Source: Labilithrix sp.
GTDB taxonomy: Bacteria > Myxococcota_A > Polyangia > Polyangiales > Polyangiaceae
Direction: 5' to 3'
Assembly: GCA_019637105.1 (NCBI GenBank)
Contig: JAHBWF010000005.1
Coordinates: 29,611-93,610 of the forward strand
DNA: 64,000 nucleotides
In this document: positions 7,901-29,282 of the stretch, one piece after another
How positions within the stretch are numbered: position 1 is the stretch's first letter
How the letters are laid out: every line of letters begins with the position of its first letter
Program-made: the position numbers and the translations under genes
Notes under the pieces: model-generated
Databases searched by the model: none
Told to the model about the DNA's origin: nothing
The model's input: only the letters and a program-made list of their open reading frames with translations

Positions 7901-10900
7901 CCGTCGAGCGGCTCCGCCAGGCGGCGGACGTCGCGCAGGGCATGGGCGACGCCGCCGCCGCCGTCGCCCTGTACGGCCGCCTCCGCGCGATCGCGCCGCG
8001 CGACGAGCACGCCACCGGGCAGCTCGTCGATCTCCACGAGCGCGCGGGGAGCTGGGAGGCGGTCCCGCCGCTCTACTCGGTCCTCCTCGAGCTCGCGACC
8101 GACACGCTCTCGCGCGTCGCGCTCCTCCGCCGCCTCTCGCGCACGCTCGCCGACCAGCTCGGCGACCTCGAGCGCGCGTTCAACGCGGCGAAGAGCGCGC
8201 TCGCGCTCGCGCCCGAAGACGGCGACGCGCTCTCCGACGCGTCGTCGCTCGCGATCCGCACCGGCCGCACCGCCGAGCTCGCGGCGGCGATCGACGAGGC
8301 GCTCGCCGCGACGACCACGGCGCCGGAGGCCACGCGCGCGGAGCTCACGCTCGCGAAGGCGCGGGTCCTCGCGACCCAGGAGGCCACGTGGGGCGAAGCC
8401 GCGGCCGCCTTCCGCGCGGTGCTCGAGGACACGAGCGACGAGGCGATCCAGGCCGCCGCGTCGCAGGCGTTCACCGAGCTGCTCCGCGCGATGCCGCGCA
8501 GCCAGGCGAAGACCCGCGACGTCCGCTGGCTCCACGGTTGGCGCGTCGACCACGCGCCCGCCGATCAGCGCGCCCGGGCCCTGCTGGCGTGGGCCGAGGC
8601 CGAAGAGCTCGAGCTCGGCCACGAGCAGACGGCGCTCGAGCTCTACAAGAAGGTGCTCGAGATCGACGAGTCCGAGCTGGACGCGCTCTCGGCGGTGTCG
8701 CGCCTCTCGCTCGCCCACGGCGACGTCGAGGGCGCGCTCGCCGCGCTGATGACGCGGCGAGCGGCGTCCGAGGGCGACGCGAAGAACGCGCTCGACGTCC
8801 AGATCGCGACGATCCTCGTCGATCGCCCGGGCCGCGCGGACGAGGCGCTCGATCGGATCGCCGGCGTCCTCGAGAACACCCCGCAGGACGCCGCCGCGAT
8901 CGAGCTCGCGGCGCGCCTGCTCGGCGACCACGAGGTCGCGGAGCGCGCGGCGAAGGTCCTCGAGACCTCGCTCGACGCCGTCGACGATCCCGACCAGAAG
9001 ATCAAGGTCTTCGATCACCTGATCGCCCGCCCCGGCGCCGGCGGATCCGCGCCGCGGCGCGAGCTCTACGAGCGCTACCTCGACACGCTCGCCGAGCTCG
9101 AGCGCCCGGACGCCGCCTACGCGGTGGCGCTCCGGGCGGTCCGCGCGCTGCCCGCCGAGCAGTCGCTCTGGGATCGCGCCGAGCAGATCGCGCGCCAGCT
9201 CTCGTCCGCCGAGCCGCTCGCCGACACGTACGAGGCCGTGCTCCGCCTCGAGGTCGCCGGCGCGAACGGCGCGAGCCTCGCCGAGCTGGCGCGGGCGGCG
9301 AACGAGCCGCCGAGCGACGACGCCCTCCAGCAGACGCGCCTCGCGAAGGCCGACGCCATCGAGCTCGGGCAGCGCGCGGTCGCGTTCTACGAGGAGTGGT
9401 ACGAGGACAGCGACCGCGTCGTCCGCGTGCTCGAGCGCCTCCTCGAGATCGAGCCCGAGGACACCTGGGCGTTCGATCGCCTGAAGCTCATCTTCGACTC
9501 GAAGGAGCGCTGGGACGACCTGTTCGCGCTCTACGACCGCGCGGCCGCGTCGGCGGACAAGGATCGCAAGTTCGAGCTGCTCGAGGAAGCCGCGCAGATC
9601 GCGAAGGACTTCGCCAACCACGCGCAGCGCGCGATCCGCTACTTCGAGCAGCTCCTCGAGCTCCGGCCCGGCAACGTCCGCCTCTCGTCGGCGCTCGAGC
9701 GCCTCTACGAGCGCCACGGCTGCCACCGCGAGCTCATCACGCTGCGCGGCATGCGCCTGCTCTCGCTCCCCCACGACGAGGCGCAGAAGGAGCGCTCGCG
9801 CATCGCCACGCTGTGGCTGGACGAGCTGAACGACGCGTCGAGCGCGCTCATCGTCGTCGAGGACATCGTCGTCAACCAGAACCTCGAGGTGCCCGAGGGC
9901 GCCGAGGCGCAGGTCATCGACGTGACGCCGCTCCTCGAGCGCGTGCTCGCGACCGCGCCGCGCAACGCCGACATCCGCGAGACGGTCCCGCCGCCGCCGG
10001 ACGGCCGCCGCGACTCGTACGTCCCCACCGCGCCGAAGCGCGGGCTGGTCCGCCAGCGGGCCGCGGCGCTGCTCAAGGAGCGCTACGCCGTGCCCGGCAA
10101 GGAGGCCGACCTCGCCCGCGTGCTCGAGGTCGAGCTCGAGGTCGTCAAGAGCGTCAAGGAGCGCATCCGGCGCCACCACCAGATCGCCGGCCTCCACGCG
10201 CAGCTCGGCAACGACGAGGCCGCGCTCGAGCACTTCGTCCAGCTCGTCCTGCTCGAGCCCGAGGTCGCCTCCCATCGCCAGGAGCTCGCCGCGATCGCCG
10301 CGCGCATCGGGCGCTTCGATCGGCTCGCCGAGGTGCTCGTCTCCGCGGCGGACGACGCCCACGACGACGCGCTGAAGGTCGAGCTCCTGATGAGCGCCGG
10401 CGACGTCGCCGCCGACGAGATCGGCGACATCGAGCGCGCGATCGAGCTGTTCTTCCGCGTCCTCGCGGTCTCGCCGATCGCCGACGCCGCGCTGCTCGAG
10501 GCGTGCCGCCACGTCGAGCCGCTCCTCGAGAAGGCCGACCGGCGCGCCGACCGCCTCGACGTCCTCGAGCGGCTCGCGATCCTCGAGCAAGACGCGGACG
10601 TGAAGTGGCGCGTGCTCGGCGAGGCCGCGCGCCTCGCGATGGGGCTCGAGGAGGACGATCGCGCGATCTGGGCCTGGGAGGGCCGCCTCGAGACGCGGCC
10701 GGGCGATCCCGAGGCGCTCGACGGCCTCGCCTTCCTCTTCGAGAAGGCCGAGCGCTGGCGCCCGCTCATCGACACGCTCGACAAGCGCGCCAGGCGCGAC
10801 GATCGCGACGCCGGCCAGCGCCGCGAGGACCGGATCCGCGTCGCGCAGATCCAGAGCGAGAAGCTCGAGGCCACCGAGGAGGCGATCGAGACGTGGCGCG

Positions 10901-13900
10901 ACGTCGAGGCGACCTTCGGGCACTCGGAGGACGGCACGCGGGCGCTCGCCGGCCTCTACCGCCTCACCAAGCGGTGGGAGGAGCTCGCCGAGCTGCTCGG
11001 CGGGGCCGCGGCGCGCGCGGCGACCCCCGCCGACAAGGCCGACACGCTGCGCGAGCTCGGCGACGTGCAGCGCGAGGAGCTCGGCCAGATCGCCCTCGCG
11101 ATCGCCAGCTACGAGCTCTCGCTCACGACCGAGCCGCGCAACGAGGGCTCGCGCTCGGGGCTCCGCTCCCTCATCAAGAGGTCGGAGCACCGCGCCGAGG
11201 TGGTGCGCGTGCTGCTCGCCGCGTACGTCGCCGCCGACGACTGGAAGCTCATCCTCGACATCACGGAGCACCGCCTCAGCGCGACGCACGACACGCCGGG
11301 GCAGATCGCCGTCTTGATGGAGGCCGCGCGGATCTCCGAGGACCGCGCCGACGACGCCGACGCGGCGTTCACGCTCGTCCGCCGCGCGCTCCTGCTCGAC
11401 CCGAGCCAGGACCAGACCGTCGCCGAGATCTTCCGGCTCGCGGACAAGACGCGCGCCTGGCGCCCGCTCGCCGACGCGCTCCGCGAGTGCATCGACGGCC
11501 AGGGCGACGCGGCCTGGGCGCGCGCGCTCCGCTTCCGCATGGGCGAGGTCCTCGAGGCTCGCCTCGACGAGCCCCGCCCGGCCCTCGACGCCTACGTCCA
11601 CGTCGCCGATCAGGACCCCGGCGACCTCGAGTCGGCCAAGGCGGTCATCCGCGTCGCCGGGAAGACGTCTCGCTGGGACGCCGCGGCGCGCGCCCTCGTC
11701 GAGGCGACGCGCGCGCGCGACGCGCTCGAGCGGGACCTCGTCGAGGCCGTCGAGGACGCGGCCCAGGCGGCCGCCGGCTGGGACGCGGTCACCTTCGCGC
11801 TCGCCTCGCTCATCCACGACGGCGGCGGGCTCTCGCCCGGCCTGGCGCGCGACCTCGAGGACGCCATCGCCGTCTGGCACCGCGACCGTCGCGGCGATCC
11901 CGACGCGGCGGAGGCGGCCTACGCGCGCGCGCTCGCGCACGACCCCACCAACGCGCCGCTGCTCGCCGAGCTCGCCAAGCTCCAGCGCCGCGCGCGCGGC
12001 CGGCCGCTCGTCGACAGCCTGCTCCGACTCTCGCAGACGACCGGCGGCGATCTCGATCTGCTCGGCGAGGCCGCGGAGGTCGCGGTCAACAGCGTCGGCG
12101 ATCGCGCGCTCGCCAAGTCGATCTTCGATCGCCTGCTCAAGCTCGCCGCCGAGCGCTGGCTCGGCGCGACCGAGCCGAACGTGCTCACGAGCGGCACGCC
12201 GGACGCCCCCGAGCACTACGTCGACCGCGCGACCCGCGAGCTCGTGCGCATCTACGGCGACGACGGCGACCACGACAAGGTCGTCCAGCTCCTCACCGAC
12301 ACCGCGCACCTCCCGTGGAAGACCGAGAAGGCGCGGGCCCTCCGGCACGAGGCGGCGCGCGTCGCGGTCGACAAGCTGGGCGCGGCGGACCGCGCGATCG
12401 CGATCTACCTCGCGCTCATCGAGGAGGATCCGCACGACGCCGAGGCGGTGTCGCGCGTCGTCGCGCTCTACGAGGCCGCCGATCGGCGCACCGAGCTGCT
12501 CGACCTGAAGCGCCGCCTCGTCGGGACCGCGCGCGACGTCGGCGCGCGCCTCGAGCTCCGCCTAGAGGTCGCCGCGCTCGAGGACGGCCTCGACTCCGTC
12601 CCGCGCGCGATCGACGCGCTCCGCGAGAACCTCGGAGAGTCGGCGCGACACGACGCGACCGTGAAGATGCTCGCGGCGATCCTCCAGCGCGAGCGGCGCG
12701 TCGAGGAGCTCGAGGCGCTGCTCGCGTCGCAGGCCCAGCTCGGCGAGGACGCCGGCGACAAGTCCGCCAGCGCCGACTTCTTCTGGCGCGCCGCCGAGGT
12801 CGCCGAGAAGCAGATGAAGGATCCCGCGCGCGCGATCGCGCACCTCCGGCGCGTCGTCGCGCTCGAGGAGCGGCCGCCCGCGTACGACGCGCTCGCGCGG
12901 CTCTCGACCGACACGCGGGCCTACGACGACGCCGCCGGGTTCCTCGACCGCCTCCGCGAGCTGACGGACGGACCGGCGCGCGCCGCGGTCACGCTCCGGC
13001 TCGCCGACGCCCTCGTCTCGGCGAGCCGCAAGCCCGAGGCCCGCGAGCGCCTCGAGTCGGAGATCGCGCGGGATCCCGAGGCCGACAGCGTCCGCGTGCG
13101 GCTCGCCGAGACCTACCGCGCCGCGCAGGACTGGCCGGCGCTCGCGGTGCTCCTCACCGAGGGCGCGCACCACGCGCCCGACAAGGCCACGCGCCTCGCG
13201 CGCCTCCGCGAGGCCGCCGAGCTCCACCGCGCGCGCACGAACGAGCCCGACAAGGCGATCCCGCTGCTCGAGCAGGCCTCCGACCTCTCGCCCGACGACA
13301 ACGCCGTGAAGCTGGCGCTCGCCGACGCGCTCGGCGCGGCGAGCCGCTTCGAGGAGGCGCGCACGCTCCTGCGCACGCTCGTCGAGGCGTTCGGCGGGCG
13401 CCGCCCGAAGGAGCGCGCCCCGGTCCACTACCACCTCGCGCGGCTCGATCTCGCCGTGGGCGATCGCGCGCGCGCGCTGGTCGAGCTCGACGCCGCGACG
13501 CGCATCGATCCGGCCAACCCGGAGATCCTCCAGGCCCTCGCCGAGCTCGCCCGCGACGACGGGCAGCTCGAGCGCGCCGAGCGCTCGTACCGCGCCCTCC
13601 TCACGGTCCTCAGGCGGCAGGAGGACGCGACCGACGACGCGGCGATCACCCGCTCCGAGGCCCTGTTCGAGCTGGCGCAGATCGCGACGCGCCAGGGCGA
13701 GAGCGATCGGGCGAAGGAGATCCTCGAGAGCGCCTTCGAGCTCGCGCTCGAGAGCGCGGTCGAGGCGCGCCGGCTCGAGGGCGCCCTCCGCCGCGCCGGC
13801 GATCACGTGAACCTCGCGCGGGCGCTCGGCGCGCGCCTCGAGCGCGGCGGCGCGGAGGACGAGGCCGCGCTCCGGACGGAGCTCGGCGGGCTCTACGATC

Positions 13901-16900
13901 GGCACCTCGACAAGAAGGACGAGGCGCTCGAGATGATCCTCCGCGCGATCGACCTCGAGCCGGCGAACGAGGCCGCGCACGACGCGGCCTTCCGCCTCGC
14001 GGGAGCGACCGGCAAGATGGCGTCCTACGAGACGCGGGTCCGCGACCTCGCCGAGGCGAAGGCCGACAGCGACGGCGACCTCGCGGGCATGCTCTACCTG
14101 CGGCTCGCGCGCATCGCGGAGAGCGAGGCGAAGGAAGATCGCGAGGTCGCCGCCCTCTACGAGAAGGCGGTCGCCGCGCGGCCCGAGGATCGCGAGCTGC
14201 TCTCCGCGCTCGCCGGCGTCTACGAGCGCCTCGGCGACGACGCGGGCCAGGCGCGCGTCCTCGGCATGCGCGTCGAGCTCGACACGGCCGCGGGCGGCGC
14301 GTCGCCGGACGCGCTCTACCGCCTCGCGCAGCTCCGCTTCCGCTCCGGCGACGTCGACGCCGGCTGCGACGCCTTCGAGCTGGCCTTCGAGGCCGATCCC
14401 GACGCCGATCGCGCCGAGGAGCTCTTGCGCGCGGCCGCCGACGCGCACCCGAGCGCCGAGCGCATCGTCGACGTCTACGAGCGCCTCGCCCGCGCGCCGG
14501 GCCGGGAGCGCTCGCTCGTCGACGCCCTCGTGCGCCGCTGGTCGCTCCCCGGCGCGGGCGTCGATCCGATGAAGGAGGCCGTCGAGATCGCCGAGAAGCT
14601 CGAGGACGCCGGCCTGGCCGAGTCGCTCCTCCGGCGCTTCCTCGAGCGAGAGCGCCCGCGCGGCATGAGCGACGAGGAGTACCGCGAGGGCCGCGTGTGG
14701 GCGCTCGCGCTCCTGGCGTGGCGGTGCGAGGAGTCGGGCCGCGTGCGCGAGGCCGCCGTGCTCAAGCGCGAGGCCGCGGAGATCGCCGAGCCCGAGGCGG
14801 CGCGGCGCTTCCTCTTCGAGGTCGCCGGCCTCGCGTCGGGCCCGCTCGACGACCTCCGCCTCGCGTCGTCGATCTACGAAGAGCTCCACGAGAAGGAGCC
14901 ACAGGACCGCGACGCGTGGGAGCTCCTCCTCGACGTCTACCGCCGGCTCGACGACTTCTCGAAGCTCGTCGCGCTCGTCGCGCGCATCGTCGAGTTCGTC
15001 GACGACGTCGGCGAGCGCAGCAAGCTCCGCCTCGAGCGCGTCAAGGTCCAGATGCAGAAGCTGAAGCTCTCGGACGACGACGCGGCCGAGGAGCTGCGCG
15101 ACATCGTCGACGAGGACCCGGCGCAGGTCGACGCCGCGCTCCTGCTCGTCAACATCTACGAGAAGAGCGGGCGCGAGGACGACCTCGCGGACCTGCTCGC
15201 CCGCCAGCTCGACGGCGCGAAGGACCGGCAGGACGCCGAGGCCGTCGGCTCGCTCTCGCGCCGCCTCGGGCAGCTGCTCGAGAAGCGCGATCGTTCGCAG
15301 GCGCGCGACGTCTACTACGCCGCCCTCGACTGGGATCCGCAAGCGCGCGCGATCCTGCTCGCGCTCGAGCGGCTCCACGACGAGGACGCCGACATCGAGG
15401 CGCGCTCCGACGTCATGGAGCGCCGCCTCGCGATCGAGCACGGCGACGAGGCCGAGGCGCTCGCGCTGTCGCTCCACGACACGCGCCGCGCGCTCGAGGA
15501 CAACGAGGGCGCCCTCCGCTCGCTCGAGCTCGGCTTCCGCGGCGCGCCGCGGAGCATGCAGCTCCGCGACCGGCTGGAGATCGTCTACCGCGACACGAAC
15601 GAGTACGGGAAGCTCGCCGAGCTCTTCACGCTCGACGCGCGCGGCCGGCAGGACGCGAAGGAGAAGAGCGCGCGGCTCCGCGAGGCCGCGCAGATCTACA
15701 GCGCCGAGCTCTCGAACCCGGAGGAGGCGGCGAAGGTCCTGCGCGAGGCGCGCGCCGCCGATCCGAGCGACGCGCTCCTCCTCATCGAGCTCGTCGACAC
15801 GCTCTCCGCCGCCGGCGAGCTGCGCGGCGCCGTGGACGAGCTGACGTCCGCGCTCAACGCGCTCGATCCGGACGCCGCGCTGAGGCCCGATCTGGTCGGC
15901 CGGCGCGCGCTCGCCCGGAGCCGCCTCGGCGAGATGGACGGCGCGCTCGAGGACTTCGAGGAGGCCGTCGCCAAGGGCAAGCACGACCTCCGCGCCTATT
16001 TCGCCGAGCACCTCGGGAAGATGGCGCTCCAGGCCGCCGGCCGCGGCGACGTCGCGACGTGGCGGAGCTACCGGCTCCGCATCGCCGGCCTCCGCCTCGA
16101 CATCGGCGACGTCGAGGAGGCGCGCAACGTCCTCACCGAGCTGCTCAAGACGGACAGCAAGGACAAGGCGACCCTGCGCGCGATCGCCCACGTCGACGAG
16201 CTCGAGGGCCGCTGGGACACGGCGAGCGCGACGTACCGGCGGCTCGTCGGGCTCGAGGACGCCGAGGGCATCGTCAGCGCCGCGCTCAAGCTGCTCGAGA
16301 CCTGCGAGAAGGCCGGTCGCCTCGCCGACGCGCGCGGCGGCCTCGAGCGCGCGCGGATGGCCGCGCCCGACGACGCCGAGCTCCGCGAGCGCCTCGCGTG
16401 GCTCTACGAGCAGCTCGGCGCCTTGAAGGAGCTCGCCGAGCTCGTCCTCGAGGAGGCCCGCGCCGCCGGGGACGTCGCGCCGCGCTTCGAGGGCCTCGTC
16501 CGCGCGGGGCAGCTCTTCCTCGAGGCGGCCGCCGATCCGAACCAGACGCAGCAGCTCGACAACACGGCGGCGATCGCGCCGCTCGAAGAGGCGCACGCGC
16601 TGCGGCCGTCGGACCTCGACTGCGCCGCGCTCCTCTCCGACGCCTACGTCGCGGGCGGTCGCATCGACGAGGCGCAGGAGCTGCTCCTCCGGACGATCGG
16701 CACGTTCAAGGGGCGACGCGCGCGCGAGCTCTCGGCGCTCTACCACCGCCTCGCGCGCATCGCCGAGATCCTCGGCGACCGCGCCACCGAGCTGCAGCAC
16801 CTCACGACCGCGCTCGACATGGACGCGCAGAACGGGGTCGTCGCGTCCGAGCTCGCGTACCTCGCGATGGAGACCCAGAACCTCGACGTCGCGCAGCGCG

Positions 16901-17094
16901 CGCTCCGTCAGATCACGATGCTCAAGGTCCCCGCGCCGCTGCCGAAGGCGGTCGCCTACCAGCACCTCGGCGAGATCGCCCGCCAGCAGGGCGACAACCG
17001 ACGCGCGATGATGCTGCTGAAGCGCGCGATCGACGACGATCCGTCGCTCGACGACGCCCGCGCCCTGCTCGAGCAGCTCCAGGCCGAGGGCTGA
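4915..17094 (+). CDS. Giant cytoplasmic TPR/alpha-solenoid protein (4059 aa), similar in size and type to AgmK/GltI
   Basis: Single 12.2-kb ORF with G/C-ending codons. Dozens of TPR-like helical pairs (e.g. AFEAFEQALGIDPADDEL, AIGAYRRAVADDPTDREA, YARALAHDPTNAPLL). No signal peptide. Confidence 0.9.
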   Translation: MGPSPRQSRANIPSFEAKLENEEEVLDSIVSALSKNALDAAIWDELHDAAVKHDRVSELAFAYESAAQSRKLKTFLPAVQAELFFRAATFFGDVLGDEFGATTYLERALGAFPGHVGAFERIDAQLTRTDDNKKLAELCVQTSAHHARPDQIAILKRAAHLFERASLEDKAIETFQQLVRLDPADEELRNALEARFVRANRYRDVARMFEQALAADPPPPEEEAARIRQKLIEVFANQLKEPERAMPHVEALLESDPANAEARRVAHRLLESKGLAARAAAALSAGATTTEERARYLGIELEHTRGPRRRDVLRRIGVLKQDELDDTQGAFEAFEQALGIDPADDELRQRYMSLGIHLKGPLEVARTFARVSTVAKDAGVRSRITAEMGDLLLRGGDTKRARTTLAGVLSAPSADPGAVLTAARALSSVYESEGDVRNLVEVLQRIGELSPLEGEKQLANERIAEICTNELGDVDRAIGAWRRLVDSPARARALEALEPLYEAREQWIDLSFVLEERAKDAAADPAAARALSYRAAEVLTTKAKDVGSASEAWRQMIAAYGPARDVYAQWLPLLEQQRLWPELAEALTKDAELAPEEERPLVLARLGNVYLQRTRDTDAAIDAFKRALDLDAAEKTSRGTLEKLLLAAEHRLAASAVLEPIYRGEQNAQGLLRVLDIRASSSPIVQDRLAALEEAARVAESVSKDKTIEVVARGLAESVESQEPIGPWLERFTRAGEGIDPKRRAAFLGKALGDRPIESRELLGLAVLVGEESYAAGDVAAALAAYRRALAFEPSSTDLIARVDQLLQEQGNPEERVALYRAALERGADPARRRQLLHSIGTIERYELMNPTAAIGAYRRAVADDPTDREANSALVELYTETEAWDELCDLLEDYLAHATSPEETRAARAQLAQVATAHGQGDRGALHAGALLNDPNLGEPELDLVEHVATTLSDKVLLRAVLERRVRESEEPQKQVECLERLATLAQDSGDASHAVERLRQAADVAQGMGDAAAAVALYGRLRAIAPRDEHATGQLVDLHERAGSWEAVPPLYSVLLELATDTLSRVALLRRLSRTLADQLGDLERAFNAAKSALALAPEDGDALSDASSLAIRTGRTAELAAAIDEALAATTTAPEATRAELTLAKARVLATQEATWGEAAAAFRAVLEDTSDEAIQAAASQAFTELLRAMPRSQAKTRDVRWLHGWRVDHAPADQRARALLAWAEAEELELGHEQTALELYKKVLEIDESELDALSAVSRLSLAHGDVEGALAALMTRRAASEGDAKNALDVQIATILVDRPGRADEALDRIAGVLENTPQDAAAIELAARLLGDHEVAERAAKVLETSLDAVDDPDQKIKVFDHLIARPGAGGSAPRRELYERYLDTLAELERPDAAYAVALRAVRALPAEQSLWDRAEQIARQLSSAEPLADTYEAVLRLEVAGANGASLAELARAANEPPSDDALQQTRLAKADAIELGQRAVAFYEEWYEDSDRVVRVLERLLEIEPEDTWAFDRLKLIFDSKERWDDLFALYDRAAASADKDRKFELLEEAAQIAKDFANHAQRAIRYFEQLLELRPGNVRLSSALERLYERHGCHRELITLRGMRLLSLPHDEAQKERSRIATLWLDELNDASSALIVVEDIVVNQNLEVPEGAEAQVIDVTPLLERVLATAPRNADIRETVPPPPDGRRDSYVPTAPKRGLVRQRAAALLKERYAVPGKEADLARVLEVELEVVKSVKERIRRHHQIAGLHAQLGNDEAALEHFVQLVLLEPEVASHRQELAAIAARIGRFDRLAEVLVSAADDAHDDALKVELLMSAGDVAADEIGDIERAIELFFRVLAVSPIADAALLEACRHVEPLLEKADRRADRLDVLERLAILEQDADVKWRVLGEAARLAMGLEEDDRAIWAWEGRLETRPGDPEALDGLAFLFEKAERWRPLIDTLDKRARRDDRDAGQRREDRIRVAQIQSEKLEATEEAIETWRDVEATFGHSEDGTRALAGLYRLTKRWEELAELLGGAAARAATPADKADTLRELGDVQREELGQIALAIASYELSLTTEPRNEGSRSGLRSLIKRSEHRAEVVRVLLAAYVAADDWKLILDITEHRLSATHDTPGQIAVLMEAARISEDRADDADAAFTLVRRALLLDPSQDQTVAEIFRLADKTRAWRPLADALRECIDGQGDAAWARALRFRMGEVLEARLDEPRPALDAYVHVADQDPGDLESAKAVIRVAGKTSRWDAAARALVEATRARDALERDLVEAVEDAAQAAAGWDAVTFALASLIHDGGGLSPGLARDLEDAIAVWHRDRRGDPDAAEAAYARALAHDPTNAPLLAELAKLQRRARGRPLVDSLLRLSQTTGGDLDLLGEAAEVAVNSVGDRALAKSIFDRLLKLAAERWLGATEPNVLTSGTPDAPEHYVDRATRELVRIYGDDGDHDKVVQLLTDTAHLPWKTEKARALRHEAARVAVDKLGAADRAIAIYLALIEEDPHDAEAVSRVVALYEAADRRTELLDLKRRLVGTARDVGARLELRLEVAALEDGLDSVPRAIDALRENLGESARHDATVKMLAAILQRERRVEELEALLASQAQLGEDAGDKSASADFFWRAAEVAEKQMKDPARAIAHLRRVVALEERPPAYDALARLSTDTRAYDDAAGFLDRLRELTDGPARAAVTLRLADALVSASRKPEARERLESEIARDPEADSVRVRLAETYRAAQDWPALAVLLTEGAHHAPDKATRLARLREAAELHRARTNEPDKAIPLLEQASDLSPDDNAVKLALADALGAASRFEEARTLLRTLVEAFGGRRPKERAPVHYHLARLDLAVGDRARALVELDAATRIDPANPEILQALAELARDDGQLERAERSYRALLTVLRRQEDATDDAAITRSEALFELAQIATRQGESDRAKEILESAFELALESAVEARRLEGALRRAGDHVNLARALGARLERGGAEDEAALRTELGGLYDRHLDKKDEALEMILRAIDLEPANEAAHDAAFRLAGATGKMASYETRVRDLAEAKADSDGDLAGMLYLRLARIAESEAKEDREVAALYEKAVAARPEDRELLSALAGVYERLGDDAGQARVLGMRVELDTAAGGASPDALYRLAQLRFRSGDVDAGCDAFELAFEADPDADRAEELLRAAADAHPSAERIVDVYERLARAPGRERSLVDALVRRWSLPGAGVDPMKEAVEIAEKLEDAGLAESLLRRFLERERPRGMSDEEYREGRVWALALLAWRCEESGRVREAAVLKREAAEIAEPEAARRFLFEVAGLASGPLDDLRLASSIYEELHEKEPQDRDAWELLLDVYRRLDDFSKLVALVARIVEFVDDVGERSKLRLERVKVQMQKLKLSDDDAAEELRDIVDEDPAQVDAALLLVNIYEKSGREDDLADLLARQLDGAKDRQDAEAVGSLSRRLGQLLEKRDRSQARDVYYAALDWDPQARAILLALERLHDEDADIEARSDVMERRLAIEHGDEAEALALSLHDTRRALEDNEGALRSLELGFRGAPRSMQLRDRLEIVYRDTNEYGKLAELFTLDARGRQDAKEKSARLREAAQIYSAELSNPEEAAKVLREARAADPSDALLLIELVDTLSAAGELRGAVDELTSALNALDPDAALRPDLVGRRALARSRLGEMDGALEDFEEAVAKGKHDLRAYFAEHLGKMALQAAGRGDVATWRSYRLRIAGLRLDIGDVEEARNVLTELLKTDSKDKATLRAIAHVDELEGRWDTASATYRRLVGLEDAEGIVSAALKLLETCEKAGRLADARGGLERARMAAPDDAELRERLAWLYEQLGALKELAELVLEEARAAGDVAPRFEGLVRAGQLFLEAAADPNQTQQLDNTAAIAPLEEAHALRPSDLDCAALLSDAYVAGGRIDEAQELLLRTIGTFKGRRARELSALYHRLARIAEILGDRATELQHLTTALDMDAQNGVVASELAYLAMETQNLDVAQRALRQITMLKVPAPLPKAVAYQHLGEIARQQGDNRRAMMLLKRAIDDDPSLDDARALLEQLQAEG

Positions 17095-17139: not shown

Positions 17140-17730
17140 TCAGCGACCGGCGGCCGCGTCCGATCCGCCGGCGGGGGAAGCGTCGGACGACGCGTCCGCC
17201 GAGGCGGGGCGCGCGCCCGCGCGGATCGCGCGGAGCTTCGCTTGCTGCTCGGGGGTGAGCACGTTCTTCACGCGGACGAGCATCCCGAGGTGGGAGGCCT
17301 TCACCTTCGTCTCGCGGTCCATCACGCGGGCGGCCGCCTCCGCGACCCTGGCCTCGTCGGCGCGATCGGCGTCGAGGAGCTCCACGAGCTTCTCCTTCTC
17401 GCCCTGGAGCTCCCACTGGAGGCGGAGCATCGCCGCCTGGCCCTTCTCCGTCTCGGCGAGGATCGCGGCCTTCTGCTCGGCGGTGATCGCGAGCGCGTTC
17501 TGATGCTCCATCACGAGCTCCGGCGGGAAGAGCCGCGACTCGACCGGGCCGAGGGGCTCGCGCGCCTCGCGCGCCTCCGCGGGGGCCGTGCCGAGCCGCG
17601 GGGGCGAGAGCGTGACGGCGCCGTCGGCGGAGACCGAGTCGCCCGGCAACGGCTCGCGTTTGGCGCAGGCGGCGACGAGCGCGGCGAGGAGGAGCGAGCA
17701 GAGGACACGAGGCAGGGTCGTCATCGTCAT
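17140..17730 (-). CDS. Spy/CpxP/ZraP-family (LTXXQ) periplasmic lipoprotein
   Basis: Signal ending LVAAC; helical domain with LAITAEQKAAI and VLTPEQQAKL motifs; TGATG overlap with the upstream gene. Confidence 0.8.
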   Translation of the reverse strand: MTMTTLPRVLCSLLLAALVAACAKREPLPGDSVSADGAVTLSPPRLGTAPAEAREAREPLGPVESRLFPPELVMEHQNALAITAEQKAAILAETEKGQAAMLRLQWELQGEKEKLVELLDADRADEARVAEAAARVMDRETKVKASHLGMLVRVKNVLTPEQQAKLRAIRAGARPASADASSDASPAGGSDAAAGR

Positions 17731-18143
17731 CACCATCCCTTGAGCGGGTTCGAGTCGAGCGCCGCGGCGCCGAGCGCGCGGGGCGCGCTGCCCGGAACGT
17801 CGAGGAGGAAATCGAGCGGCGCCGGATCGAAGCCGGCCGGCGCGGCCCCCGGCGCCGTCTCCGCCGCCGGCGGGCGGCCGCCGTCTCCGGCAGAGGCCGA
17901 GACGCGGCGACGGGCGACGCGGCCTCGGGCCTCGACGATCCCGAAGAAGCTCGTCGGCCCGCACCAGACGACGAACAGCGCCGCGGCGGCGAGCGACGCC
18001 GCGGGCACGAGCACCCGCCACGGAGAGCGCGCCGCGCGCCGCGCCGCCCACATCTCCTGGAAGTCGGGCGCGCGCCCGCGATCGCGGCGCGCGAGCTCCG
18101 CGAAGCGCGCGCGGAGGTCGCGATCCTCGTCCGGGGTGGTCAT
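17730..18143 (-). CDS. Putative single-TM anti-sigma factor
   Basis: From ATG 18143 (MTTPDEDRDLRARFAEL) with SD GAGGAGG. One TM segment (VLVPAASLAAAALFVVWC). ATGA overlap with the ECF stop. Confidence 0.7.
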   Translation of the reverse strand: MTTPDEDRDLRARFAELARRDRGRAPDFQEMWAARRAARSPWRVLVPAASLAAAALFVVWCGPTSFFGIVEARGRVARRRVSASAGDGGRPPAAETAPGAAPAGFDPAPLDFLLDVPGSAPRALGAAALDSNPLKGW

Positions 18144-18670
18144 CGGGAGCCCTCCTCTTCTCGGATCAAGGCCGAGAGCGCGTGCTTGCCGCGCTCGTAG
18201 TGCTGGCGGGCCGTCCCGAGCGCGACGCCCATCACCTCCGCCGCCTCGGCGATCGAGAGGTCCTCGTAGAACACGAGGTGGAGCACCTCGCGCTGCCGCT
18301 CCGCGAGGCGCGCGAGCGCGCGCGAGAGCCGCTCGGCGCGCTGCCGCGCCGCGGCCTCCGAGTCGGGGGCGCGGCGCGCGTCGGGGAGCTCGGCGGGCGC
18401 GTCGCTCCTCGCGCCGCGGAGGACACGGAGCACCGACCATCGACGATGTTCGCGCGCGGTCATCCGGATGACGCCGAAGAGCCACGTCTTGAGGCTCGAG
18501 CGCCGGTCGAAGCGCGCGCGGCCGTCGAGCACCTTGCAGTAGGCGTCCTGGAGGACCTCCTCGGCGAGCCCGTGGTCCCGGCGACAGCACGCGAGCGCCC
18601 AACCGAAGCTCGCCGGGTGGAGCGCGGCGAGCTCTCGCTCGGTCGTTCGCGCGTCCTCGCGGTCATCCAC
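18140..18670 (-). CDS. ECF RNA polymerase sigma factor
   Basis: Region 2 AEEVLQDAYCKVL...FDRRSSLKTWLFGV and region 4 LAERQREVLHLVFYEDLSIAEAAEVMGVALGTARQH. Confidence 0.92.
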   Translation of the reverse strand: MDDREDARTTERELAALHPASFGWALACCRRDHGLAEEVLQDAYCKVLDGRARFDRRSSLKTWLFGVIRMTAREHRRWSVLRVLRGARSDAPAELPDARRAPDSEAAARQRAERLSRALARLAERQREVLHLVFYEDLSIAEAAEVMGVALGTARQHYERGKHALSALIREEEGSR

Positions 18671-18704
18671 GTCGGCCCGACGGTCGCATCGACGCGCCCT
18701 TCGG

Positions 18705-19553
18705 TCAACCGACCGCCGCGGGGAAGGGCGACTTCGCGCGCCGACGGCGCACGACGACGACGACCGCCGCGAGGACCGCGAGGACCGGCGCGAGCGTCGG
18801 ACCGATCGCCGCCGCCGCCATCGCGGTGTAGACCGCGACCGCGGTCGCCGCCTGAACGCCCGCGTTCCCGGCGCGAGCGAGGCTCGGGCCCGGCGTCTGC
18901 CACGCGGCGACGCTCTTCGTCGAGAGGCTGACGCGCACGGTGGCGAGCGCGACCTTCGACCTCATCACGCGCTCCTGCGCCTCGAGGCGCTCGACGTTCT
19001 CGCGCACGCGCGCCAGCTCCCGCTCGGCCTCGAAGAGCTCCTGGATCGACGCGGCCCGGCCCGACATGATCTCGAGCAGGCGCTTCTCCTGCGTGCGCGC
19101 GCTGAGGAGGCGCGCCTCGAGGTCGGCGCGCTGCTCGGTCACGTCCTCGACCTTCTCGGTCGCGCTCGTGACCTCGCCGAGCTCGCCGAGGGCGGCGCGG
19201 ATGCCGCGCGCCTCGCCGGCGGGGACGTGGAGCTCGAGCCGCGCGGTCTGCCGCTCGTTCGCGCCGCTCGCGTGGGAGTCGGCGACGAAGCCGCCCGCCT
19301 TCTCGACCGCCGCGCGGAGCCGGGCGGCGGCGTCGTCGACGCGCTCGACGGTCACGGCGACGTCCATCGTCACGACCAGCGATCGATCGGCGGCCGCGAG
19401 CGGCGACGCGCCGATTTCGCCGGGGGCGGGCGCGGCGGCCACGGGCGCCGCCGACGAGGACGCGCTCTCGGGGGCGGCCTTCGCGCATCCGGCGAGGGCG
19501 AAGAGGAGAGCGAAGACGGTGAGGAGCGAGGAGGTGCGCGAGGGGATCGTCAT
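18705..19553 (-). CDS. DUF4349-domain lipoprotein/membrane protein
   Basis: Lipobox LAGC; AVEKAGGFV...LELHVPA...EDVTEQRADLEARL...ELFEAERELARVRENVERLE pattern; C-terminal TM followed by a basic tail. Confidence 0.8.
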   Translation of the reverse strand: MTIPSRTSSLLTVFALLFALAGCAKAAPESASSSAAPVAAAPAPGEIGASPLAAADRSLVVTMDVAVTVERVDDAAARLRAAVEKAGGFVADSHASGANERQTARLELHVPAGEARGIRAALGELGEVTSATEKVEDVTEQRADLEARLLSARTQEKRLLEIMSGRAASIQELFEAERELARVRENVERLEAQERVMRSKVALATVRVSLSTKSVAAWQTPGPSLARAGNAGVQAATAVAVYTAMAAAAIGPTLAPVLAVLAAVVVVVRRRRAKSPFPAAVG

Positions 19554-19801
19554 GGTGTGGCGATAAGTGATCGGTCGCGCGCGCCCATATGACGTCACGG
19601 GACGATTTTCTCGCAGCACCCATCAACGCATTGATTTTACGCGCATTTTGACACACTCGTGCGCCCGTGCGGGCACGTCGGCGCCGTCGAGCGCGGCGCG
19701 GGCTCGGCGCTTCGACGACACGATCCCGCTCGTCGCGGAGCGCGGCGGCGGCGCCCTGCCCGCTCGGGATCGAGCGTCGAGGCCGAGCCGCGGAGCGCGC
19801 G

Positions 19802-20329
19802 TCAGAGCAGATCGCCGGGCTCGAGCATCAACGCCTCGTAGAGGATGTCGAGGCGCTCCTTCAGCTCGTCGTTGTTCGGATCGTGCTGGTTCGCGGAGAT
19901 GAGCTGGATGCGGGCGTCGTCGAGCTTCCCTCGCGCCAGGAGCTCGTCGGCCTTCGCCGCGTGCTGCTTCGCCTTGGGCGTGCGCGCGATCATGAACAGC
20001 GTGCGCTGCTCGTGCTGCTTCTTCGGCTCGACGGCGCGCTCGTCGAGCTTGAGCTGCCCCTTCTTCAGCTCCGCGTCGTAGCGGACGCGGAACGCCGGCT
20101 TGCGCAGGACGTTGTACGCCTCGGCCGCGCGCTTGAAGACCGACGCGGCGGCGGCCGCCACCTCGGGCCCCTCCTCGACGAACCGATCGGGGTGACAGCG
20201 GAGCGACAGGTCGTGGAACGCCTGCTGGATCTCGCCCGGCGACGCGTCCTCCGGCACGCGCAGGATCTCGTAGTAGCTCATCGCTTCGAGCGACTCTGCC
20301 CACGCGAGGAACGTCGACGTCTCCGCCAC
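19802..20329 (-). CDS. J-domain (DnaJ-like) protein with C-terminal TPR-like helices
   Basis: YYEILRV...LRCHPDRF (HPD motif)...EAYNVLRKPAFRVRYD. C-terminal ADELLARGKLDDARIQLISANQHDPNN. Confidence 0.9.
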   Translation of the reverse strand: MAETSTFLAWAESLEAMSYYEILRVPEDASPGEIQQAFHDLSLRCHPDRFVEEGPEVAAAAASVFKRAAEAYNVLRKPAFRVRYDAELKKGQLKLDERAVEPKKQHEQRTLFMIARTPKAKQHAAKADELLARGKLDDARIQLISANQHDPNNDELKERLDILYEALMLEPGDLL

Positions 20330-20387
20330 GGCTCGAGCATAGCGCCGCCCCGCGACGACGTCATGGGCGACGACTCACGCGCGCGCG

Positions 20388-22919
20388 TCAGGCCACGTTG
20401 TGGCGCGCCTGGCGCTCGGCCATCGCGCCGATGTCCTCGGCGTCCGTGCTCGTCCCGAGCAGGCGCATCGTCGCCGTCGTCTCGCGCCCCGTGTCCTGAT
20501 CGCGCGCGCGTACGTTCAGGATGCCGTCGGCGTCGAGCTCGAACGTGACGGCGATCTTCACCTCGCCGCGGCGCGCGCGGCGGAGCCCGGAGAGATCGAG
20601 ATCGCCGAGCCGGGTGTTCGCCGCGAAGCGCGACGACTCGCCCTGGGCGACGCGGATCGACACCACCGTCTGGCCGTCGCTCGCCGTCAGGAACGTGCGC
20701 GTCTTCTCGCACGGCACGGGGGAGTTCGCGGGGATGAGGACGTCGGCGTACCCCCCCGCGGTCTCGACGCCGAGGCTCAGCGGCGTCACGTCGATCAAGA
20801 GCGGCGTCGACGCCGACGTGGTGATCGCGCTGCCCTGCTGGAAGCGCGCGGGCGAGGCCACCGGCCCGAGGTCGAGCTCGAGCTCCTGAGAGCGCTGGTG
20901 GCTCGCCACGAGCGCGCTGATCCCGAACGAATTCACCGCGCGCCCCGCCGGCGGTCCCGACGGCAGCGCGAGGTCGAGGTCCGGCGCCGCCGGCGGCCCC
21001 AAAGGCAGCTCGAGATCCAGATCCGGCGCCGCGACGATGTCGCGCGGACCGTAGTCGCCGAGGGTCCCCGGATCGTCGAGCTCGGGGATCCCGGGCAGCG
21101 CGAGGTCGGGCAGCGGCACCGCCGGCTGCGAGGGCGACGCGGAGCGACGCGCGGGCTTGGGTCCGGCGGGCGCCTCCTCGACCGGGCTCCGCGCGGGCAT
21201 CCCCTCGATCGGCCGCGTCGAGGCGCGCGCGCCGACGAGCGGCGCCGCGTGATCGGTGCCGCCGCGGCTCTGCGTCGGCGCTCCCGACGATCCGAACGCG
21301 ACGACCCGCGGCGCGGACGCGGGAGGAGCCGCGGGGACGCGCGGCGACGACGGAGGCAGGTCCGGCGCGGACGCGGGGACGCGCGGCGACGACGGGGCGC
21401 CCGCGGGACGCGGCGGCTCGATCGGCACCTTCTCCATCGGCAGCGTCGGCACGCGCCCGCGCACCGGCAGCGGGGGCGGCTTCTGCGGCGCGGGCGGCGG
21501 CGGCTTCGCCGGGGCCCTCGGCGCCTGCGCGACGCCCGGGACGTCGGAGAACGAGATCACCGCCGGAGCCTTGTTGAAGGAGAAGAACTCGGGGACGGGC
21601 GGCGGCGGCGCGGGCGGCGCGCCGAGGTTCGTCGGCAGCGCGGGCGCGCGCGGGACGTCGGCGGCCGCGAGCGTCGGGTCCGCGTCGGGCGGCCGCGTCG
21701 GCACCTGCTCGCCGCTCGGCTTCGGCTGCGCCCTCGCGAGCTGGTCGTGCGCGGAGCGCCGCTTGTGCGCCGCCTTCGAGCGGTTGAGCGCGTGCGCCTG
21801 GATCGCCGCGCCGAGCGCGACGACCTCGTCGGGGTTCACCTTGAGGTGAGGCTGCTGGCCGAAGAGCTCCTCGACCATGCGCGCCACGAGCGGGATGCGC
21901 GTCGAGCCGCCGACGAGGATGACGCGATCGAAGTCGCGGGGAGACAGGCCGATGATCTCGATCGACTGCCGCGCGACCGCGATCGTCCGCTCGACGAGCG
22001 GGCGCGTGAGCGCCTCGAGCTCGTCGCGCGTCATCACGAAGGGCATCGAGATCGGGTGGCCGCCTTCGTGGTATCCGACGCCGGAGATCTCGCGCTGCGC
22101 CTGGTAGGCGGTCGAGAGCTCCTTCTTGAGCTCCTCGGCCACGAAGCTCAGCCGCGCGGCGCTGCCGGGGTTGGTGCGCGGGTCGACGTTGAACCGCTTG
22201 ACGACGTCGAGCGCGATCTTGTCCGCGAGCACCCGGTCGACGTCGTCGCCGCCGAGCGCCGTGTCGCCCGCGGTGGCGAGCACCTCGAAGACGTTCCCCG
22301 TGAGGTCGAGCAACGTGACGTCGAACGTCCCGCCGCCGAGGTCGTAGACCCCGATCTTCTCGGCCTTCGAGATCGACTGCCCGTACGCGAGCGCGGCGGC
22401 AGTCGGCTCGTTGAGGATGCGCATGACCTCGAGGCCGGCGAGCTTCCCCGCGATCTTCGTCGAGGCGCGCTGGAGATCGTTGAAGTTCGCCGGGACCGTG
22501 ATGACCGCCCGGTCGACGGGCTGGCCGAGCGCGGCCTCGGCGATCGACTTCGCGCGGCGCAGCACGAACGCGCTGATCTCCGGCAGCGCGTACGCGACGT
22601 CGCGCGCGAGGATCATCGTGCTGTTCTTCGTCCCCTGCACGAGCTGGAACGGGAAGCGCGACTTCGCGGCCTGCACCTCGTCCGAGTCCCACGATCGCCC
22701 GAGCAGCGGCTTCACGGAGAAGATCGTGTTCTCGGGATCGATGAGCCGGCGCTCGCGCGCGGGCTCGCCGACGAGCACGGTGCTCGACGGGTGAAACGAC
22801 ACGACCGACGGGAGCAGACGCCGGCCCTGCTCGTCCTCGAGCGTGACGGCCACGCCGTCCACCACCGCCGCGACGACGGTGTTCGTGGTGCCGAGGTCGA
22901 TTCCGATCGCGACGCTCAT
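20388..22919 (-). CDS. dnaK: Atypical Hsp70/DnaK paralog with a long Pro-rich insertion and no helical lid
   Basis: GIDLGTTN, AVITVPANFND, RILNEPTAAALAYG, YDLGGGTFD, VILVGGSTRIP, NPDEVVALGAAIQ and LLIDVTPLSLGVET motifs. Confidence 0.9.
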   Translation of the reverse strand: MSVAIGIDLGTTNTVVAAVVDGVAVTLEDEQGRRLLPSVVSFHPSSTVLVGEPARERRLIDPENTIFSVKPLLGRSWDSDEVQAAKSRFPFQLVQGTKNSTMILARDVAYALPEISAFVLRRAKSIAEAALGQPVDRAVITVPANFNDLQRASTKIAGKLAGLEVMRILNEPTAAALAYGQSISKAEKIGVYDLGGGTFDVTLLDLTGNVFEVLATAGDTALGGDDVDRVLADKIALDVVKRFNVDPRTNPGSAARLSFVAEELKKELSTAYQAQREISGVGYHEGGHPISMPFVMTRDELEALTRPLVERTIAVARQSIEIIGLSPRDFDRVILVGGSTRIPLVARMVEELFGQQPHLKVNPDEVVALGAAIQAHALNRSKAAHKRRSAHDQLARAQPKPSGEQVPTRPPDADPTLAAADVPRAPALPTNLGAPPAPPPPVPEFFSFNKAPAVISFSDVPGVAQAPRAPAKPPPPAPQKPPPLPVRGRVPTLPMEKVPIEPPRPAGAPSSPRVPASAPDLPPSSPRVPAAPPASAPRVVAFGSSGAPTQSRGGTDHAAPLVGARASTRPIEGMPARSPVEEAPAGPKPARRSASPSQPAVPLPDLALPGIPELDDPGTLGDYGPRDIVAAPDLDLELPLGPPAAPDLDLALPSGPPAGRAVNSFGISALVASHQRSQELELDLGPVASPARFQQGSAITTSASTPLLIDVTPLSLGVETAGGYADVLIPANSPVPCEKTRTFLTASDGQTVVSIRVAQGESSRFAANTRLGDLDLSGLRRARRGEVKIAVTFELDADGILNVRARDQDTGRETTATMRLLGTSTDAEDIGAMAERQARHNVA

Positions 22920-23138
22920 ACCGTCCGGCCTGAAAGTCTAGAACACCGAACGGTCGCGGACCGAGTATTTCCGTCGAGCTCCGAGCAGCGCGAGGCGCTC
23001 CGACGATGACGGCTCGAGCCGACGCGAGGAGGCGCGACGAAGCGATCCGACGGCGATCGGCGGAGCGACGACGGGGGCAAAACGTTCGGCGCTCGAAATC
23101 GACGAAGCTCGAGCGAAATTCAGCTCCGCGTGGCGTGC

Positions 23139-23161
23139 CCCGAAAAACCGCTCTTTTCGGG
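23139..23161. terminator. Short hairpin downstream of gltD, possible terminator
   Basis: CCCGAAAA-7 nt-TTTTCGGG inverted repeat about 45 nt after the gltD stop. Confidence 0.3.
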
Positions 23162-23205
23162 CCCGGGCGGCGCGGCCGCCCCGCGATTCTCGGCCGAAGA
23201 GCCGC

Positions 23206-29282
<6,077 letters not shown>

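Follow-up and report, generated by a model that had tools for sequence, protein, structure and literature searches.

A lidless Hsp70 family of Polyangia with a long, length-variable tether before the interdomain linker

Hsp70 allostery is thought to depend on a connection of a few residues, which lets the interdomain linker and the β substrate-binding domain snap onto the ATPase domain. This raises a question about a gene in the 64,000-nucleotide stretch of Labilithrix sp. DNA analysed here (contig JAHBWF010000005.1; hereafter the window), which encodes an 843 amino acid Hsp70 in which 326 residues, predicted to be disordered, separate the ATPase domain from the linker and from which the α-helical lid is absent. 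Could such a protein still run the ATP-driven cycle of an Hsp70, and what would the long segment, which we call the tether, contribute to it?

Hsp70 paralogues of myxobacteria in which the lid is shortened or missing are on record in the literature, where their roles are unassigned, and we found there no account of a long disordered segment inserted where the ATPase domain meets the linker. We hypothesise that the window protein is a specialised Hsp70 without a housekeeping role, that the J-protein encoded downstream is its working partner, and that its ATP cycle is retained across a tether acting mainly as a spacer. We regard this as a fairly probable account, based on the residues that the protein shares with its relatives and on the constancy of its partner gene.

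Domain layout of the window Hsp70 and extent of its family

The gene and its parts, together with the partner gene, are the following (pLDDT, predicted local distance difference test; GC3, GC content at third codon positions).

20388..22919, reverse strand: whole gene of the 843 amino acid lidless, tethered Hsp70, from the open reading frame and its translation; stop codon at 20388-20390.
21786..22919, reverse strand: nucleotide-binding (ATPase) domain, residues 1-378, from the alignment with DnaK 3-382; pLDDT 80-95.
20808..21785, reverse strand: Pro/Ala/Ser-rich tether, predicted to be disordered, residues 379-704 (326 amino acids), from the absence of a Pfam domain, pLDDT <50 and GC3.
20790..20807, reverse strand: interdomain linker TPLLID, residues 705-710, aligned with DnaK 388-393.
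20454..20789, reverse strand: β substrate-binding domain, residues 711-822, aligned with DnaK 394-505; pLDDT 70-90.
20391..20453, reverse strand: C-terminal tail, residues 823-843, with a helix A stub (DAEDIGAMAERQARHNVA; one modelled helix, 827-839) and no lid beyond it.
19802..20329, reverse strand: gene for a 175 amino acid J-protein (Pfam DnaJ), 58 nucleotides downstream of the Hsp70 gene.

Pfam HSP70 (PF00012) matches the protein in two separate stretches (E=1e-151), and alignment to E. coli DnaK (PDB 2kho) pairs residues 3-378 with DnaK 3-382 and residues 695-830 with DnaK 378-512, the β domain aligning without a large gap. The linker stretch PLLIDVTPLSLG corresponds to DnaK 389-400 and is followed by the β-sandwich substrate-binding domain. 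A first-pass annotation of the window had placed the end of the ATPase domain, AAIQAHAL, at about 21786 and the start of LLIDVTPLSLG at about 20801, with 984 nucleotides or 328 amino acids between them; translation and the DnaK alignment return these values exact to the base (residue 378 at nucleotide 21786, residue 707 at nucleotide 20801, and a spacing of 984 nucleotides). Counted in this way the junction is 326-328 residues long, against 10-11 by the same measure in the DnaKs of the same genome. Only 13 residues follow the last position that aligns with DnaK (DnaK 512), and an AlphaFold2 model, for which a 77-sequence alignment was the input, shows a single short helix (827-839) after the β domain; thus the α-helical lid (helices A-E) is absent. 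The alignment and the model therefore agree with the architecture first proposed, in which an insert lies between ATPase domain and linker and the lid is missing. In addition, the protein falls short of the NCBIfam equivalog cut-offs for DnaK (NF001413 and TIGR02350; 530.6 against 648, and 516.2 against 822.55) and for HscA (485.1 against 708.55).

It had also been considered that the insert might occur in this assembly alone, which is not the case. A database search scored on residues 380-843 gave 514 relatives, and the best 120 of these all have a 378 amino acid ATPase domain, an insert of 115-402 amino acids and a 121 amino acid β domain; in all 120 the C-terminal tail extends 17-19 residues (18 in nearly all) past the end of the probe used for the β domain at residue 825. 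The tail motif M..ARQARH (M..ARQ.RH) is conserved among relatives. A scan of one genome per species gave 80 loci, every one of them in an assembly from Polyangia or Myxococcota. Among them is a locus in the closed genome of Labilithrix luteola DSM 27648 (L019), where the Hsp70 gene (10001-12034) encodes 679 amino acids with a tether of 162 and the J-protein gene lies at 12072-12587. The nearest locus is that of a Labilithrix sp. metagenome-assembled genome, at 94% identity in the ATPase domain. The 76 complete genomic copies have tethers of 108-579 amino acids (median 275), and about 190 relatives share the layout, with an overall tether range of 108-685 amino acids. Judged from these alignments, the family is a conserved lidless Hsp70 with a tether of more than 100 residues before an intact linker, truncation within helix A and a J-protein partner of about 175 amino acids. 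The window protein has the helix A truncation, the 326-residue insert and the downstream J-protein, and the conservation of its residues, considered below, is consistent with an ATP- and J-dependent substrate cycle.

The window's genome (8.45 Mb in 334 contigs) encodes two canonical DnaKs, one HscA-like protein and a second tethered lidless Hsp70. This paralogue (locus L085, 5327-8923; contig C274:17326-20922) is about 1197 amino acids long, with an insert of about 681 amino acids (685 by the measure used for the tree below) and the linker PVLVDVTPRGL, and it has a J-protein of its own (L085, 8974-9531; C274:20973-21530) of 185 amino acids in which the HPD motif is present.

The J-protein partner and the order of lid loss and tether growth

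The presence of an adjacent J-protein, noted at first for the window alone, holds for the family at large, as 64 of the 65 distinct loci with enough downstream sequence have, directly downstream of the Hsp70 gene, a gene for a J-protein of 170-186 amino acids, at gaps from -1 to 219 nucleotides. The exception belongs to a small clade represented by locus L041 (1203-3539; also L031 and L038): no J-protein gene adjoins the Hsp70 gene in L041, where an acetyl-CoA hydrolase gene follows it, while in L031 and L038 the downstream DNA is too short to judge. The HPD motif is invariant in 52 J-protein orthologues. A model of the window's J-protein (pLDDT 87.5) starts with an N-terminal helix followed by the J domain; residues 90-110 are flexible, and residues 118-169 form a compact C-domain of three helices. 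The protein has neither G/F nor zinc-finger regions. Foldseek matched its J domain to other J domains, and over the whole length it has a weak resemblance to HscB, with a template modelling score (TM) of about 0.41. The length of the J-protein is constant across the family against a six-fold variation in that of the tether. By gene order and sequence, the J-protein is a dedicated operonic partner of the tethered Hsp70. Neither protein was matched by PADLOC, which covers anti-phage defence.

The order in which lid and junction changed was addressed with a tree of the folded parts only, rooted on the canonical DnaKs of the window's genome. All lidless proteins form one monophyletic clade with full support, apart from the genome's two canonical DnaKs. 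Its basal branches consist of lidless proteins of about 520-545 amino acids with a normal junction (those with a junction of 10 residues lie at the base), from Bradymonadia and other Myxococcota. These short relatives, which were found by a search with the β domain, have junctions of 10-19 residues, compared with 10-11 for canonical DnaK by the same measure, and the same type of J-protein partner follows them where the flanks could be read (5 of 8 fetched loci). The window protein sits in a strongly supported long-tether clade of 30 rows with junctions of 113-685 residues, at the base of which the second paralogue of the window's genome branches alone. Clearly outside this clade lies a separate group (P0169, P0175, P0177, P0180 and P0187) with junctions of 80-127 residues, and a third group (P0218 and P0223), with junctions of 319-368 residues, stands in an unresolved polytomy with it. 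Apart from such expansions, the lidless proteins of these other branches mostly have short junctions. Since lidless proteins with a normal junction lie at the base of the rooted tree, we infer that the lid was lost first, in a family that extends across Myxococcota, and that the tether was then expanded by tandem duplication in Polyangia. On the branching of the tree, expansion of the tether happened at least twice; the growth seen in P0218 and P0223 may be independent of that in the window's clade or shared with it. The scores below the DnaK and HscA cut-offs, the monophyly of the lidless clade and the dedicated J-protein all agree with the description of the window protein as a specialised Hsp70 in the first-pass annotation.

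Conserved residues, the tether and the competing explanations

Residues of functional importance were mapped through the DnaK alignment (DnaK numbering is used) and counted in 77 relatives. The catalytic set D8, K70, E171, D194, T199 and D201 is invariant, as are the proline switch P143, F146, and the residues that contact the J domain or the β domain, R151, K155, R167, I168, N170 and T173. The same holds for L390, L391 and D393 of the linker (in the window protein P706, L707, L708, I709 and D710 are all invariant), for N415 and the interface residues D481 (D798 of the window protein) and L484, and for the pocket residues F426, A429, Q433, V436 and V440. It has been demonstrated that bidirectional allostery in DnaK requires D481, R151, K155 and R167 (Kityk et al., 2015). 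Because the catalytic, J-docking, linker and interdomain-interface residues are invariant, the ATP- and J-driven cycle is probably retained.

The tether is different in kind. Its composition is 22% Pro, 17% Ala and 9% Ser, with Ser and Thr together at about 12%, and a scan of the insert against Pfam matched no family and no intein. Essentially all of residues 397-709 have a pLDDT <50 in the AlphaFold2 model, and the tether is thus predicted to be intrinsically disordered, while residues 379-395, a basic segment (NRSKAAHKRRSAHDQLARA), are modelled as a continuation of the last helix of the ATPase domain. In the called frame GC3 is 88-98% across the entire insert, and for this reason we take the insert to be coding, translated sequence and not a frame accident of a high-GC genome. 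When the tethers of the family are divided into fifths, 78% are net basic in the fifth nearest the ATPase domain and 58% are net acidic in the fourth. Within the window tether four elements are distinguished, three of which are repeats located by Tandem Repeats Finder.

21537..21587, reverse strand: hydrophobic island FFSFNKAPAVISFSDVP, residues 445-461, conserved in the Labilithrix-type clade.
21330-21394, reverse strand: 21-nucleotide tandem repeat, 3.1 copies, encoding SSPRVPA units.
20945-21032, reverse strand: 42-nucleotide tandem repeat, 2.1 copies at 84% match, encoding PDLDLELPLGPPAA and PDLDLALPSGPPAG, which are copies of the hydrophobic-acidic motif.
20867-20885, reverse strand: 6-nucleotide repeat, 3.2 copies, encoding the hydrophobic-acidic motif ELELDL, residues 679-684.

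It had been pointed out earlier that the insert contains SSPRVPA twice and the acidic repeats PDLDLELP, PDLDLALP and ELELDL. The translation contains all of these; as conserved features, however, the SSPRVPA and PDLDL.LP repeats did not hold up, being recent lineage-specific duplications, and what recurs among relatives is the general hydrophobic-acidic type of motif. The closest relative, L005, lacks the SSPRVPA repeat, which argues that it is a recent local duplication and that the tether grows by tandem duplication. In comparisons with five close relatives, the ratio of nonsynonymous to synonymous substitution rates (dN/dS) is 0.10-0.18 for the ATPase domain, 0.03-0.20 for the β domain and 0.26-0.61 for the alignable part of the insert, which also carries many indels. 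As the values for the insert are above those of the domains yet below 1 in every comparison, its evolution is, by this measure, relaxed and not neutral.

Between clades the conservation of tether sequence is almost nil. Within the Labilithrix-type clade, to which it is confined, the island FFSFNKAPAVISFSDVP has an invariant K450 and A453, I455, F457 and P461 conserved at ≥90% in the 77 relatives, and tethers of other clades have a similar motif, K-P-L-V-F-D-V-P, at an equivalent relative position. Outside the island, a search of the tether for conserved Ser or Thr sites gave none. Two classes of short motif recur across the family in tethers that otherwise cannot be aligned: a hydrophobic-acidic, strand-like class (with forms such as KPLVFDVP, LELDLGP, IDLDVP and FEFEDALP) and an LPLVG-type class. 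When 72 distinct tethers were compared with shuffles, the pattern Φ-x-Φ-[DE]-Φ was observed 48 times against 9.9±3.2, its K/R version (a basic control) once against 10.4 expected, and LP[LIV][VIL][GMTSQ] 45 times against 1.3 expected, although these counts overstate the number of independent events because the tether sequences are related. The window tether has three or four copies of the hydrophobic-acidic motif.

With these observations in mind, we propose the following cycle for a specialised Hsp70 whose tether is mainly a spacer. Binding of ATP would let the linker and the clamp dock onto the ATPase domain across the flexible tether, and the J-protein together with a bound polypeptide would trigger hydrolysis and undocking. 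As there is no lid, clients would be expected to bind and leave quickly. The tether would be above all a spacer of variable length that extends the reach of the clamp. More speculatively, its hydrophobic and hydrophobic-acidic motifs are candidate docking sites: they could occupy the clamp of the same protein in the manner of a tethered pseudo-substrate, or bind the helical C-domain of the J-protein. There are two precedents, as Hsp70 linkers are known to bind as substrates in neighbouring protomers, including those of lidless BiP, and HscA recognises the short motif LPPVK.

Several observations weigh against this proposal. Four positions that matter in DnaK for restraint of the basal ATPase or for the substrate arch are changed in the 77 relatives: Y145 is N in 77 of 77, K414 is A in 74, D326, the partner of K414, is I in most, and the arch residue M404 is systematically V or A. 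In DnaK, K414I and Y145A raise the basal ATPase activity, and Y145A is not stimulated by DnaJ (Kityk et al., 2015). Given these changes and the phenotypes of the DnaK mutants, coupling between the domains may be looser, weaker or rewired. The effective concentration of the clamp comes to about 0.26 mM at 326 residues versus about 60 mM at 10 residues, figures that are a Gaussian-chain estimate and not a measurement. In the AlphaFold model both the linker and the conserved island have a pLDDT <50, and the model gives no support for docking of either. No nucleotide-exchange factor gene (grpE) lies near the Hsp70-J pair. As for the motifs, the relatedness of the tethers tempers their counts and the window tether has no canonical LPLVG-type motif.

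One alternative, possible if doubtful in our view, is that the tether is a neutral spacer. The junction would have become permissive once the lid was lost, non-functional low-complexity sequence would have accumulated in it through replication slippage in a genome of 70-80% GC, and the product would be a plain lidless Hsp70. A length that ranges from 108 to 685 amino acids with near-nil conservation between clades is what would be expected here, as are visible recent tandem duplications, a dN/dS of up to 0.61, an insert with no domain or predicted structure, and the fact that similar expansions arose independently in another lidless lineage. However, no junction in the 30-row long-tether clade is shorter than 113 residues despite a core identity that goes down to about 56%, and the shortest of the 76 complete copies is 108 amino acids. 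Moreover, dN/dS stays below 1 throughout, an island with an invariant Lys is conserved, the two motif classes are 5- to 35-fold above shuffles with the basic counterpart depleted, and the charge polarity of the tether recurs across the family.

It is also conceivable, but quite doubtful, that the tether replaces the lost lid. Its motifs (K-P-L-V-F-D-V-P, FFSFNKAPAVISF and the LPLVG type, which is similar to the LPPVK recognised by HscA) would then cap the protein's own clamp or that of a neighbour as pseudo-substrates, giving a self-capped resting state from which real clients or the J-protein would have to displace them, with the length of the tether setting the effective concentration, and with it the threshold, for self-capping and for interdomain docking. 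Intramolecular docking of the island or the linker was considered and set aside for want of support in the model, where both have a pLDDT <50, and this counts as weak evidence against it.

A third explanation, which we judge to be improbable, is that the protein consists of two uncoupled modules. Allostery would be abolished, the ATPase domain would be an Hsp110-like exchange factor or a regulator of canonical DnaK, and the β domain would be an ATP-independent holdase. The changes at Y145, K414, D326 and M404 could be taken in this sense, as substitutions at Y145 and K414 of DnaK weaken the restraint on its basal ATPase, and so could the estimated drop of about 200-fold in effective concentration, the undocked state in which the AlphaFold model shows the window protein, and the case made in a recent review for a possible loss of canonical function in many DnaK derivates. 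On the other side, LLID, D481, L484, R151, K155, R167, I168, N170 and T173 are invariant in the 77 sequences, which makes a loss of docking and of J-stimulation hard to accept, and an operonic J-protein with an invariant HPD accompanies the Hsp70 in 64 of 65 loci.

Less probable still, and speculative, is that the tether is primarily a regulated scaffold, which takes up the suggestion of the first-pass annotation that partners or phosphorylation of the insert could tune the coupling. Partner proteins would bind the tether or Ser/Thr kinases would phosphorylate it, and in this way they would adjust how the chaperone is coupled or where it is located. Myxobacteria encode many Ser/Thr kinases, and in one relative kinase genes lie a few kb away; short linear motifs recur in an otherwise variable disordered region, and Ser and Thr make up about 12% of the insert. 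Set against this, kinase neighbours are not conserved, the J-protein is the only conserved neighbour, and outside the island there is no conserved Ser or Thr site.

An artefact (a fusion of two genes, a frameshift, or an intein or other mobile insertion) might be suspected in a draft genome of 334 contigs where, at high GC, long open reading frames are open in other frames, but we reject it with near certainty, given an uninterrupted architecture in about 190 independent assemblies, among them the closed L. luteola genome, a GC3 coding signature through the whole insert, and no intein or other Pfam domain within it.

Two alternative-frame open reading frames do overlap the Hsp70 gene, at 20278-22692 on the reverse strand (804 amino acids) and at 20400-23009 on the forward strand (869 amino acids). 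They were rejected as genes, their Arg/Gly/Ala-rich translations being typical of an off-frame reading of DNA with 75-80% GC.

Relation to known systems and gene neighbourhood

Compared with the E. coli DnaK/DnaJ/GrpE system, the window Hsp70 has all catalytic residues, a hydrophobic linker (LLID versus LLLD), the same residues in the clamp pocket, the J-docking surface (R167, N170, T173) and the interface (R151, K155, D481, L484). It differs in having neither an α-helical lid nor a DnaK-type C-terminal tail, in having 326 residues, predicted to be disordered, in place of about six between ATPase domain and linker, and in the changes Y145N, K414A, D326I and M404V/A; it is also below the equivalog cut-offs, has a 175 amino acid J partner and has no grpE nearby. 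The closest counterparts are the short lidless Hsp70s of Myxococcota and Bradymonadia, which are annotated as 'Hsp70 family protein' and are paired with small J-proteins. They belong to the same monophyletic family, are truncated within helix A, carry the ANF/AHF change at the position of Y145 and have the same type of J partner downstream, whereas their junction is of normal length and their K414 is kept as K or R.

The HscA-HscB pair is likewise a specialised Hsp70 with a dedicated small J-protein that consists of a J domain and a C-terminal three-helix domain, though the resemblance of the window's J-protein to HscB over the whole length is weak (TM of about 0.41). HscA recognises one short motif, LPPVK, which resembles the LP[LIV][VI]G motifs of many tethers in the family. 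In the family, however, it is the chaperone itself, and no client, that carries the LP motif, of which the window protein lacks a canonical copy. HscA, furthermore, has a lid and a normal junction, while the window Hsp70 scores below the HscA cut-off and has no isc cluster.

Among myxobacterial proteins, MXAN_2747 of M. xanthus (WP_011552814.1) is a non-canonical, non-essential Hsp70, and strains without it sporulate less and are less resistant to oxidative stress (Pan et al., 2021; PMC8265645). Like the window protein it is an Hsp70 paralogue whose ATPase domain is conserved and whose lid is much shortened (PMC8265645), but no insert at the junction has been described for it, and the 120 best relatives, whether of the long form or of the short one, include no M. 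xanthus sequence. Eukaryotic Hsp110 and Grp170 also derive from Hsp70 and combine long disordered insertions with altered allostery. Their insertions, however, lie in the β basket and the lid, their linker has diverged and their lid is extended; the window Hsp70 has no β-basket insertion, its linker is conserved and its lid is absent.

These comparisons bear on the role of the many myxobacterial 'DnaK derivates', a question raised in the recent literature. Across one bacterial class, docking residues are kept invariant while 100-700 residues, predicted to be disordered, precede the linker, the lid is removed and a dedicated J-protein is kept. The short-junction relatives in other Myxococcota families (14-27 residues by the measure used for the tree) and the tethers of 108-685 residues in the long-tether clade form a natural length series, and this could be used as a natural experiment on effective concentration, docking in cis versus in trans, and lid-free substrate kinetics in the Hsp70 cycle. 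Cultured hosts exist, for example L. luteola DSM 27648.

The neighbours of the window Hsp70 are gltB, gltD, the J-protein gene, DUF4349 and an extracytoplasmic function (ECF) sigma factor, with no isc genes among them. A gene at 4915-17094 (forward strand) encodes a 4059 amino acid protein made up entirely of tetratricopeptide repeats (TPR); it is convergent to the Hsp70-J pair and lies 0-8 kb away from it in about 30 loci of the window's clade. It is not near the pair in L. luteola or in the second clade, and the intervening genes vary. The TPR protein could be a client or a scaffold, or its position could reflect inherited gene order only. The gltB and gltD genes (23206-29282, reverse strand) are directly upstream of the Hsp70 gene in most of the window's clade and not elsewhere. 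A functional link to the TPR protein or to gltBD was rejected, as L. luteola and the entire second clade lack both near the pair and the intervening genes vary, and we therefore treat this synteny as inherited gene order.

Between the J-protein gene and the TPR gene lies a cassette (17140-19619, reverse strand) of DUF4349, the ECF sigma factor, a small open reading frame and an LTXXQ protein, which occurs only in the closest relatives (L001, L005, L006 and L009), other genes taking its place elsewhere. A consensus scan for promoters and terminators at the locus gave nothing usable. Between gltD and the Hsp70 gene, at about 23130-23190 on the reverse strand, GC-rich hairpins are followed by T-runs in a terminator-like arrangement.

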